From Thermodesulfovibrionia bacterium (GTDB taxonomy: Bacteria; Nitrospirota; Thermodesulfovibrionia; UBA6902), in contig CALZJD010000001.1 in assembly GCA_945787795.1 (NCBI GenBank), forward strand, positions 5,776 through 69,775: DNA of 64,000 nt. Reading direction: 5' to 3'. The notes under the pieces were generated by a model. The model saw only the letters and a list, made by a program, of their open reading frames with translations. It did no database searches and had not been told where the DNA came from. Shown here piece by piece: positions 46,502 to 48,178 of this stretch. Position numbers and translations under genes: made by a program. Every line of letters begins with the position of its first letter. Position 1 is the stretch's first letter.

Positions 46502-48178
46502 TTAAAGTCCTGCGGGGACATATACGGCCTTTGTCTCTTCTTTCTCCTGTCTGATTCTTGCCTCATCCCAACCAAGTTCCTTTCCCATGATTTCAGCGGA
46601 TTCATTCAGGGCATTACCTCCAGGATTTTCCGCTGAACCAAGGTCTGTCCTTCGCAAAACTACATCGGACAATTTAAGGGCCATTTCATTGCGAACGCTG
46701 TTAACAATTTCAGCCCTAATTACTTCTGATGAACCGGAAATTGTCCGTAATAATCCCTGGTCTTCATCCATGTATTTCAGAATTTTGCTGTATTCCGAAC
46801 CGTAGTTGTGTACAAGATGCGTGACCACTTTTTCATCCATTCGTGTATTATCTATTGCATTTGACAAGTAATCAGTAAACTTCCCGGTCTCCCCGCCATA
46901 AAGAGGTATTTCTTCTGTCATACATTCAGGGGATGTTCTGCACAGCTTTTTACATATCAGATCAACCGTTTTTCCTGCGACGTGTCTGTGGGTGGTATAT
47001 TTCACACCAACCACGGTTATTAAACCACCAACATTATCTTCAATCGCGTGATCGTAAATTTTGTGCTGAGTTTCGAGATTGACCATTCCTGTATCCTGCC
47101 TGACTTCGGTCATCGGAAGCAGTCCCCCATGGAAAAAGCTGATCTCCTCCCTCCTGATATCCGCTGCCGGATAGGCTTTATTAACAGTTTTCAAGAATGC
47201 CCTTATTTCCGGTTCCCTGATCCTGAAGTCATCCGGTTCTCCATAATAGGGGAGATGGATTGTGCCGATGATCGTAAAATCTCTCCACGGGAGAAAAAAC
47301 AATATCTGGCTTCCTTTATAAATTGTTCCGTCTACCCTCTTATACGTATACGGGCCCGGCAGGCCAGCTGCGTGTTTAAGAAGTAGTCTCTTTTTCACAA
47401 CTATATTCATTGCGGATGAATGTAAAAACCGTTTTACAGTATTCCCGCCGTTTTGTTTTTTCAATATATCATCTATCCAGGGACCTCCAGCATTAACTAC
47501 AACTTTAGCCTGTATGTCAAAGGTATCGTCGCTTAATGTATCCCTGGCATTGACTCCTCTTATCCAGTTTCCGTCATTTAAAAAACCTTCACACTCAACA
47601 TAATTAGCAAACTGCGCTCCAGCCCCGGAAGCTGATAGTGCATATGAAAGAACGAGACGTTCAGTATTGAAACATTGGCAGTCATACCATAAAGCACCTC
47701 CTTTCATTTCCGCATTTTCATACCCGGGCACATACTCCTTTATCTCTTTTTTAGAAATTAACCGACCTCCGGGCACTGTTTTGTCATCACTGCTTAACCT
47801 GTTTCTATCAAAACCAATAAGGTCATTGGCCTGCAACGCCACAAATAAGGCAGTCCTGCTCTTCATTTTGTAACCATACGTCGGCATTATCACGGGAAGA
47901 GGAAAAACAAGATGGGGCGCTATATTCATAAGTACTGCACGTTCATGAATGGACTGTCTCATCCTCCTGAAGTCAAAACGCTGGAGATATCTTAATCCAC
48001 CATGAATTGTCTTCAGGCTGTTTGATGATGTTGCACCTGCAAAATCACCTTTTTCAATCAAGGCAACTTTAAGCCCTCTCAGCGCTGCATCCCAAGCAAT
48101 TGAGACACCATAAACTCCACCCCCGATTATGAGGACATCATATTGCTCATTTGACAGTATATTCAGGTCTCTTATCAT
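46502..48178 (-). CDS. FAD-dependent oxidoreductase of the glycerol-3-phosphate dehydrogenase/oxidase (GlpD/GlpO) family
   Basis: 558-aa ORF. [53 protein letters not shown] is the GlpD-type dinucleotide fold plus the GG(L/I)RYL motif. The C-terminal region ...[14 protein letters not shown]...[11 protein letters not shown] resembles the GlpD C-terminal domain. Confidence 0.8.
   Translation of the reverse strand: [558 protein letters not shown]

Follow-up and report, generated by a model that had tools for sequence, protein, structure and literature searches.

Described systems closest to the flavoenzyme

Glycerol-3-phosphate (G3P) dehydrogenases and oxidases of the GlpD and GlpO type (structures 2QCU, 2RGH/2RGO, and 3DA1) share a DAO plus DAO_C fold and an FAD motif, and they carry a HGG(L/I)RYL motif containing the catalytic His and an Arg, as well as the Lys of a G-x-K-x-T-T motif. 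All these features recur in a flavoenzyme, 25 to 28% identical to them, which is encoded at 46502..48178 of a 64,000-nucleotide stretch of DNA (referred to here as the window) from a Thermodesulfovibrionia bacterium of the phylum Nitrospirota (assembly GCA_945787795.1, contig CALZJD010000001.1). Unlike GlpD and GlpO, the flavoenzyme lacks S/T46, H233, D272, R317, and G353 (E. coli GlpD numbering), belongs to a separate clade, and resides in glycan loci with no glp regulon context. The protein is very probably not a G3P dehydrogenase but a part of glycan tailoring, and it most likely oxidizes a sugar-like building block of a slime polymer.

The chemistry of this fold has been described for related enzymes. 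In MpGlpO of M. pneumoniae, H51 is the base for the C2 hydroxyl and R320 holds the phosphate, and in L-2-hydroxyglutarate dehydrogenase (L2HGDH) the residues Ser88, His92, Tyr289, and Arg393, which are conserved in MpGlpO, touch the carboxylate and the hydroxyl (PMC11097338, PMC10726252). For GlpD, a supplementary legend labels an Arg as the putative general base (PMC11962113). In both MpGlpO (type 2) and L2HGDH, the His base deprotonates the hydroxyl and the hydride passes to flavin N5, and the equivalent His in the flavoenzyme is H59. Whereas these two enzymes hold a phosphate or carboxylate by a conserved Arg together with a Ser, the flavoenzyme has Leu at both positions.

A functional parallel is provided by DprE1/DprE2, the mycobacterial decaprenylphosphoryl-ribose 2'-epimerase, in which a flavin oxidase and a short-chain dehydrogenase/reductase (SDR) are encoded close together and serve a surface-glycan pathway at the membrane, likewise here. 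DprE1 adopts the VAO/PCMH fold, and DprE2 belongs to the classical SDRs. In contrast, the window combines a GlpD/D-amino-acid oxidase (DAAO)-fold oxidase with an extended SDR of the epimerase/3-beta-HSD type, so that the likeness is one of functional analogy, not homology, and a phosphoribosyl-type donor gene is not seen here. In mycobacteria, a phosphatase step comes before DprE1/DprE2 (PMC11127046), and a PHP-like putative phosphoesterase adjacent or fused to the flavoenzyme might be its counterpart.

Optional tailoring of a lipid-linked sugar is known from the O-antigen SDR epimerase ORF13 and the three-component polyprenyl-phosphate pentofuranose systems, in which gain or loss alters the glycan (Kelly et al. 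2024, PMC11127046). The flavoenzyme block behaves similarly, being present in the window and missing from a stretch of a genome of the same family (G333) that has the polyprenyl-phosphate glycosyltransferase (GT) pair; however, the O-antigen system starts from phosphoribosyl pyrophosphate and needs no flavoenzyme (PMC11127046). Finally, the genes surrounding the flavoenzyme pass the cut-offs of Haft's TIGR030xx set for XrtA/PEP-CTERM exopolysaccharide (EPS) loci, and an exosortase is encoded in the genome. No description of the clade, or of a link between GlpD-like proteins and exosortase or EPS loci, was found in the literature.

A GlpD/GlpO fold below the family cut-offs

The flavoenzyme gene lies on the minus strand and encodes 558 amino acids from an ATG start, upstream of which four in-frame codons precede a stop (open frame of 562 amino acids). 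The protein has the complete GlpD/GlpO fold and FAD site. Pfam assigns DAO (PF01266; 2.6e-41, residues 14 to 356) and DAO_C (PF16901; 2e-28, residues 419 to 541), the latter being the C-terminal domain of alpha-glycerophosphate oxidase, and the FAD motif reads IIGGGVYG. By sequence, the closest solved structures are Streptococcus GlpO (2rgh; 1.8e-52) and E. coli GlpD (2qcu; 2.9e-42). An AlphaFold2 model computed with 44 homologs as input has a pLDDT of 88.9 and a pTM of 0.91, and its top Foldseek matches are again GlpO and GlpD (2rgo, 2rgh, and 2qcu; TM scores of 0.76 to 0.85). Both the Pfam and the Foldseek matches bear out the initial annotation, made from the sequence alone, which had recognized N- and C-terminal domains of this type; the peptide quoted there corresponds to residues 13 to 65 of the translation. 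The gaps that it gave to the flanking genes, 12 nucleotides (nt) to a GT4 glycosyltransferase and 21 nt to an AsnB amidotransferase, are also correct.

Family models place the protein apart from the established enzymes. It scores below the cut-offs of the NCBIfam GlpD models NF008899 (259.1 versus 360 bits) and NF009906 (246.8 versus 352), as well as those of NF033461 (228 versus 840) and the GlpA model TIGR03377 (169.7 versus 552.8). No NCBIfam model covers the clade to which the flavoenzyme belongs; only the GlpD, GlpO, and GlpA models match, all below cut-off. This clade comprises more than 150 clusters at 50% identity with scores above 377 bits, corresponding to thousands of database proteins, which bear the public names glycerol-3-phosphate dehydrogenase/oxidase or FAD-dependent oxidoreductase.

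Loss of the canonical phosphate-binding residues

Residues were compared between 156 clade representatives and 17 canonical GlpD, GlpO, and GlpA sequences. The catalytic His (H50 in E. coli, H59 in the flavoenzyme) is retained in 154 of the 156 representatives, R54 (R63) in 155, and K354 (K393) in 148, with Arg in the remaining 8; T270 (T306) and R359 (R398) are retained in the flavoenzyme as well. Other positions have changed across most of the clade. Position 46, Ser or Thr in the canonical enzymes, is Leu in 118 representatives (L55 in the flavoenzyme), and R317, an Arg in 17/17 canonical sequences, is Leu, Val, or Ile in 145 (L354). Likewise, D272 is replaced by His or Tyr in 135 (H308), H233 by Asn in 131 (N258), and G353 by Val in 145 (V392), while R332, invariant or almost so in canonical enzymes, is variable in the clade (T370) and Y358 of E. 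coli GlpD corresponds to H397. The anion-binding Arg of the G-x-R-P motif is R317 in E. coli GlpD and R346 in GlpO, and we take it to be R320 in MpGlpO, judging from the common motif and from the literature.

Because H59 is kept and the Ser/Arg pair is lost, the alcohol-oxidizing machinery appears to be retained in a pocket whose anion subsite would now be apolar. The initial annotation had offered a glycerol-phosphate-like or sugar-phosphate/lipid-linked substrate; with L55 and L354 in place of S46 and R317, canonical binding of a free glycerol-phosphate or sugar-phosphate is unlikely.

Phylogeny and genome content separate the clade from housekeeping GlpD

The GlpD-like proteins in a sample of 401 Nitrospirota genomes form two groups, one, in about a dozen genomes, of 38% identity or higher and scores exceeding 350 bits, and the other of 30 to 35% identity and ~250 bits. 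In phylogenetic trees rooted on GlpA, the flavoenzyme sits deep inside a clade lacking R317 (the non-R317 clade; SH-aLRT of 96 to 99), which is nested in a 100%-supported clade whose basal members retain R317. E. coli GlpD, Streptococcus GlpO, two Bacillales GlpD proteins, GlpA, and the Nitrospirota proteins with 30 to 35% identity all fall outside the non-R317 clade. A sister grade (L089, L095, L101, L104, L105, and P0155) has changed residues at three positions (L/F/H46, Q233, and V353) and retains D272 and R317; its gene context is not glycan-like, except for an adjacent methyltransferase in L089 and L095. This mixture of residues suggests, at the level of sequence, a stepwise remodelling of the pocket.

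The flavoenzyme gene is the only one encoding DAO_C in the assembly (3.0 Mb, 87% complete), and a tblastn search of the entire assembly yields no homolog of glpK or glpF (glpT was not searched), in keeping with the earlier remark that no glycerol kinase or transporter gene lies near it. Among the 40 nearest relatives, ranging in closeness from genus to class, none has a flavoenzyme or GlpD match at E <= 1e-10; therefore, the lineage lives without GlpD of any kind. In 8 of 9 high-quality Nitrospirales genomes whose sole GlpD-like type is the flavoenzyme clade, glpK is missing. Across Nitrospirota, the presence or absence of glpK is weakly discriminating, as many carriers of the canonical type likewise have no close glpK.

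The initial annotation had argued that the gene is not a housekeeping glpD and had named, as what would speak against this view, tight clustering with housekeeping GlpD in a genome with no other glpD. The gene is indeed the sole glpD-like gene of the genome, but the protein does not cluster with housekeeping GlpD in the phylogeny. Its separate clade, the scores below cut-off, the lost residues, the glycan synteny described below, and the relatives without GlpD together uphold the view that this is not a housekeeping enzyme.

Conserved gene neighborhood across phyla

The surroundings of the flavoenzyme gene are an XrtA/PEP-CTERM exopolysaccharide locus. Nearly all open reading frames (ORFs) of at least 120 amino acids in the window are on the minus strand and are members of one long polysaccharide locus. 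Eight markers of the XrtA/PEP-CTERM set score over their cut-offs: PrsT (563.9/312.2), TIGR03013 (505/393), TIGR03027 (224.7/180), TIGR03007 (464.5/278.9), TIGR03018 (253.4/230.7), TIGR03016 (162.5/90.9), TIGR03015 (357.6/324.5), and TIGR03006 (392/276.2). Their roles comprise PrsT, the TIGR03013 priming transferase, an export protein, a chain-length determinant, a tyrosine autokinase, an outer-membrane protein, an ATPase, and a deacetylase. Exosortase_EpsH is encoded on a separate contig (C6) of the same genome. In the 5'-to-3' direction, the genes around the flavoenzyme encode an ArnC-like GT2, its diverged twin, a 277-amino-acid (277-aa) protein, the GT4, the GlpD-like enzyme, AsnB, a methyltransferase, the extended SDR, a second AsnB, an alpha/beta hydrolase, and a carbamoyltransferase (Table 1). 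Wzx-like flippases, a Wzy_C protein, a PMT_2-type GT-C, YdjM, and a third AsnB are encoded elsewhere in the locus.

Precomputed annotations show similar gene sets around homologs in Aminicenantaceae, KSB1, Nitrospirota, Planctomycetota, and Calditrichaeota, and the Planctomycetota homologs adjoin exosortase EpsH and EpsI. For a quantitative survey, the neighbors in the window were compared by BLAST with the ORFs of 109 loci from genomes and metagenomes, and clade members with at least 7 kb on both sides (n = 27) were treated as long-flank loci. Of these 27, 25 have an ortholog of the extended SDR no more than 3 kb from the flavoenzyme; the GT4 ortholog (17/27) and AsnB (15/27) come next at the same distance limit, and a methyltransferase homolog occurs in 6 to 8. 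The GT2 pair beside the cassette is conserved in several phyla. Neither glpK nor glpF was found near the flavoenzyme in any of the 27, and none of the SDR, GT4, AsnB, or other such neighbors occurs at eight canonical-type Nitrospirota loci. As a control, a Paenibacillus locus has glpK 133 nt from its GlpD gene.

Overall, 67 of 80 clade members with informative context (~84%) are in glycan loci, and the nearest 20-member clade of the flavoenzyme consists of 19 glycan-context members and one short contig. The polysaccharide-tailoring context proposed initially thus holds well beyond the window, with synteny kept across phyla. The stronger statement that the entire non-R317 clade is glycan-linked is tempered by two small sub-clades. 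In a nested sub-clade of four members (L119:8001-13146, L129:7965-13916, L148:8001-13887, and L127), the flavoenzyme gene lies 0 to 35 nt upstream of mqnA, which is followed by a PNP_UDP_1 plus UbiA fusion, UbiX, and UbiD (late futalosine/menaquinone genes); this arrangement hints at a quinone- or polyprenyl-related role in these organisms. Four other members (L077, L079, L080, and L081) are beside polyphosphate kinase.

Two loci of the survey have unusual gene content. The polyphosphate kinase that adjoins the GlpD-like gene in L077 (2605-5292) carries a TIR_2 domain at its C terminus. At L049:3617-7810, in an EPS locus of a Nitrospirales genome (G373), a fusion of the alpha and beta parts of 2-oxoacid dehydrogenase E1 comes right after the SDR and is followed by an E2 lipoyl acyltransferase and a hexapeptide acyltransferase, an unusual acyl-donor module.

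The flavoenzyme block as an optional unit of the locus

Comparison with a 39.5-kb stretch of the same-family genome G333 delimits a block of genes around the flavoenzyme. G333 retains the GT2 pair (73% and 57% identity), and its stretch also has matches to a deacetylase, another GT2, a carbamoyltransferase, a GT4, and a single AsnB, compared to three AsnB paralogs in the window. No counterpart of the PHP-like 277-aa protein, the window-type GT4, the GlpD-like enzyme, the methyltransferase, the SDR, or the hydrolase is present in the 39.5 kb, and G333 is among the genomes of the phylum sample with no GlpD-like match. Since the GT2 pair is kept in G333 without the block, the flavoenzyme travels in a tailoring block that is optional to the GT pair. 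When the genomes of the phylum are ranked by their match to the GT2 twin, 11 of the top 14 also have the flavoenzyme, usually 3 to 40 kb away.

The edge of this block is visible in base composition. At 50214/50228, precisely where the 277-aa gene gives way to the GT2 twin, GC content steps down from 0.45 to 0.36, and the block that the G333 stretch lacks has its edge at the same place. GC content is 0.41 to 0.47 in the genes between 32899 and 50214 and 0.32 to 0.40 in the rest of the EPS locus, with exceptions of 0.40 to 0.42 (AsnB at 6573-8441, GT4 at 18126-19271, a 2-epimerase at 23466-24935, and a protein at 26445-29150) and 0.45 (a deacetylase at 24776-25624). We considered whether the base composition of the block is foreign to the genome and rejected this: its GC content matches the genome mean (0.423), and it is the remaining EPS locus that is GC-poor.

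Partner proteins encoded in the block

Sequence searches with the 277-aa protein returned nothing from the PDB and, up to E = 1, nothing from Pfam. It has an invariant N-terminal D-x-H-x-H motif and conserved acidic residues, and its model (pLDDT of 92) shows a distant likeness to the PHP fold (TM score of ~0.5; PsfC, the TM0559 phosphoesterase, EndoQ, and RNase AM), without most of the PHP metal-binding histidines. A protein of this type, with 33% identity to the product of 49381-50214, is fused N-terminally to the GlpD-like enzyme in P0011 (859 aa; L069:6384-8963). The PHP-like gene is detectable in 4 to 5 of 27 to 34 long-flank loci.

For the extended SDR, the best NCBIfam matches are HpnA and OleD, both below cut-off. 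Its residue after beta-2 is not conserved, and the cofactor preference is therefore unreadable from the alignment. A GT-C of the window was also considered as the consumer of a lipid-linked monosaccharide and was set aside: it lies 25 kb away beside a GT2 of its own, and no homolog was found in the flanks of the other loci.

Proposed reaction and alternative explanations

The evidence above is best explained by a GlpD-descended flavoenzyme with a new substrate, acting in an add-on tailoring block of an XrtA/PEP-CTERM EPS locus, an overall reading to which we give an even chance. The flavoenzyme would oxidize a C-OH group to C=O with transfer of the hydride to FAD, and the electrons would go to the quinone pool, as in GlpD. 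Its substrate would be a glycan building block other than free G3P, with an apolar or esterified group taking the former place of the phosphate dianion; a sugar or oligosaccharide linked to polyprenyl phosphate and bound to the membrane is the likeliest candidate. The ketone would then be reduced by the adjacent SDR with NAD(P)H, and the net outcome would be either an irreversible epimerization or a keto intermediate for further tailoring. That the oxidase and the SDR work on the same molecule we hold to be somewhat short of evenly balanced, and that the substrate is lipid-linked is a tentative suggestion; a phosphodiester substrate is possible. A lipid-linked or phosphodiester substrate would be compatible with the apolar phosphate subsite, the kept R63 and K393, a fold of membrane-associated ancestry, and the frequent ArnC-like GT2 pair. 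More speculatively, and with less confidence, the clade may be the oxidase half of a widespread, quinone-linked system of a GlpD-derived flavoenzyme plus an extended SDR, which would work at the cytoplasmic membrane and irreversibly epimerize, or keto-functionalize, a sugar or repeat unit linked to polyprenyl phosphate, representing an independent invention of the DprE1/DprE2 logic and giving a rare sugar to the exosortase-type EPS of many phyla.

Several observations weigh against this reading or parts of it. The pocket placement of L55, L354, H308, and N258 rests on alignment, and retention of R63 and K393 means that some anionic group may still bind. In only 7 of the 27 long-flank loci does the ArnC-like GT2 pair lie no more than 7 kb from the flavoenzyme, and this frequency, together with its persistence in G333, indicates that a polyprenyl-phosphate monosaccharide is not a necessary substrate. 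The only GT-C in the window (19268-21292) is 25 kb off and has an adjacent GT2 of its own. The groups linked to menaquinone genes and polyphosphate kinase, small as they are, are nested within the glycan-context clades. Lastly, the best solved relatives of the SDR are NDP-sugar epimerases and dehydratases, and the SDR could act on a nucleotide sugar instead of the flavoenzyme product.

This last point leads to the foremost alternative, a keto-sugar maker uncoupled from the SDR, which we consider unlikely. Here, the flavoenzyme would oxidize a hydroxyl of a growing repeat-unit sugar, the ketone being kept or processed by the methyltransferase and carbamoyltransferase, and the SDR would make a nucleotide sugar for the GT4; it might for instance be a UDP-uronate 4-epimerase, with AsnB later amidating its product. 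UDP-glucuronate 4-epimerases (6zl6 and MoeE5) and dTDP-glucose 4,6-dehydratases are indeed among the solved relatives of the SDR, AsnB and GT4 are frequent neighbors, and the window holds three AsnB paralogs. However, the SDR is the most constant neighbor of the flavoenzyme, above GT4 or AsnB, and its best NCBIfam matches are HpnA and OleD, not NDP-sugar epimerases. A more doubtful possibility gives the PHP-like protein a central role: the GT4 would glycosylate a phosphorylated glycerol or other polyol, the PHP-like protein would dephosphorylate it, and the flavoenzyme would oxidize a secondary hydroxyl of the glyceryl group in this aglycone or substituent. The logic of a GT plus a phosphatase is established in glucosylglycerol and mycothiol synthesis, the upstream protein combines a PHP-like fold with a natural fusion to the flavoenzyme, and the latter descends from a glycerol-phosphate enzyme and has lost exactly the phosphate-binding residues. 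Against this stand the scarcity of the PHP-like gene across the long-flank loci, the distance of its fold match with most metal-binding histidines absent, and the lack of visible polyol-phosphate supply genes in the locus.

It is very unlikely that the flavoenzyme is still a G3P dehydrogenase with a rearranged phosphate site, which balances G3P and dihydroxyacetone phosphate or feeds the quinone pool during polymer synthesis. As the sole GlpD homolog of its genome, with H59, R63, and K393 kept, a public annotation as glycerol-3-phosphate dehydrogenase/oxidase, and some sub-clades beside menaquinone genes, it has features expected of such an enzyme, but S/T46, H233, D272, and R317, which are invariant or nearly so in all canonical GlpD, GlpO, and GlpA sequences examined, are all lost. 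The absence of glpK and glpF, the 40 relatives without GlpD, the score under the equivalog cut-off, and the ~84% glycan synteny also oppose this explanation. Least probable of all is a C-N bond oxidase resembling glycine, sarcosine, and D-amino-acid oxidases, which would generate the ketone for the SDR to reduce by deaminating an amino sugar or an amino-acid substituent. The DAAO superfamily is rich in amine oxidases, and these are among the weaker structural matches of the flavoenzyme model; yet the flavoenzyme falls within the GlpD branch, keeps the alcohol-deprotonating His, and has lost the Arg that binds the substrate carboxylate in amine oxidases of the family.

Consequences for genome annotation and glycobiology

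The clade represents a conserved, misnamed enzyme and a new functional variant of the GlpD fold, of interest to both glycobiology and genome annotation. Because of the name G3P dehydrogenase/oxidase, metabolic reconstructions credit Nitrospirota, KSB1, Aminicenantes, Planctomycetota, and others with a glycerol-respiration step that is probably absent. The clade instead would mark a conserved tailoring step of exosortase-type EPS, polymers that give form to the flocs and biofilms of sediments and wastewater. It is also a probable example of how a flavoenzyme of central metabolism can be recruited into glycan chemistry via a few swaps of pocket residues, with an intermediate grade still surviving, and identification of the substrate would give glycoengineering a new enzyme type.

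Other features of the window

Table 1. Genes of the flavoenzyme block and the adjoining GT2 pair, with window coordinates
Feature	Coordinates	Strand	Basis or remark
GlpD/GlpO-fold FAD oxidoreductase of the non-R317 "glycan-locus" clade, 558 aa	46502..48178	-	Pfam, model, tree
Extended SDR, 327 aa, TGxxGFxG and YxxxK motifs	42749..43732	-	Three genes downstream of the flavoenzyme, same operon
GT4 glycosyltransferase	48191..49384	-	12 nt upstream of the flavoenzyme gene
277-aa PHP-like protein, putative metal-dependent phosphoesterase	49381..50214	-	Fold search
AsnB-type glutamine amidotransferase	44600..46480	-	21 nt downstream of the flavoenzyme; resembles TIGR03108 (XrtA/PEP-CTERM amidotransferase family), below cut-off
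SAM-dependent methyltransferase	43740..44651	-	Between AsnB and SDR; listed start overlaps AsnB by 52 nt
Second AsnB-type amidotransferase	40781..42724	-	Family match
Alpha/beta hydrolase	39743..40723	-	Last gene of the block missing from the compared G333 stretch
ArnC/GtrB-like polyprenyl-phosphate glycosyltransferase	51181..52134	-	Directly upstream of the block with its twin; GC lower than block
Diverged GT2 twin of the ArnC-like gene	50228..51184	-	Marginal GT2 Pfam match; GC lower than block

Three further regions of the polysaccharide locus deserve mention. The ORF at 36428-37912, between a GT4 and the carbamoyltransferase, encodes 494 amino acids with a signal-peptide-like N terminus and no Pfam match; its product was considered as a membrane GT, which was rejected in favor of a secreted protein. 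In the UDP-GlcNAc 2-epimerase ORF (23466-24935), the domain match starts at residue 201, and the listed start overlaps the XrtA-type deacetylase gene (24776-25624) by ~160 nt; the actual start codon therefore probably lies downstream of the listed one. At 19268-22491, the PMT_2/PMT-type GT-C (674 aa) adjoins a GT2 of 405 aa, an arrangement that resembles a periplasmic glycosylation pair.

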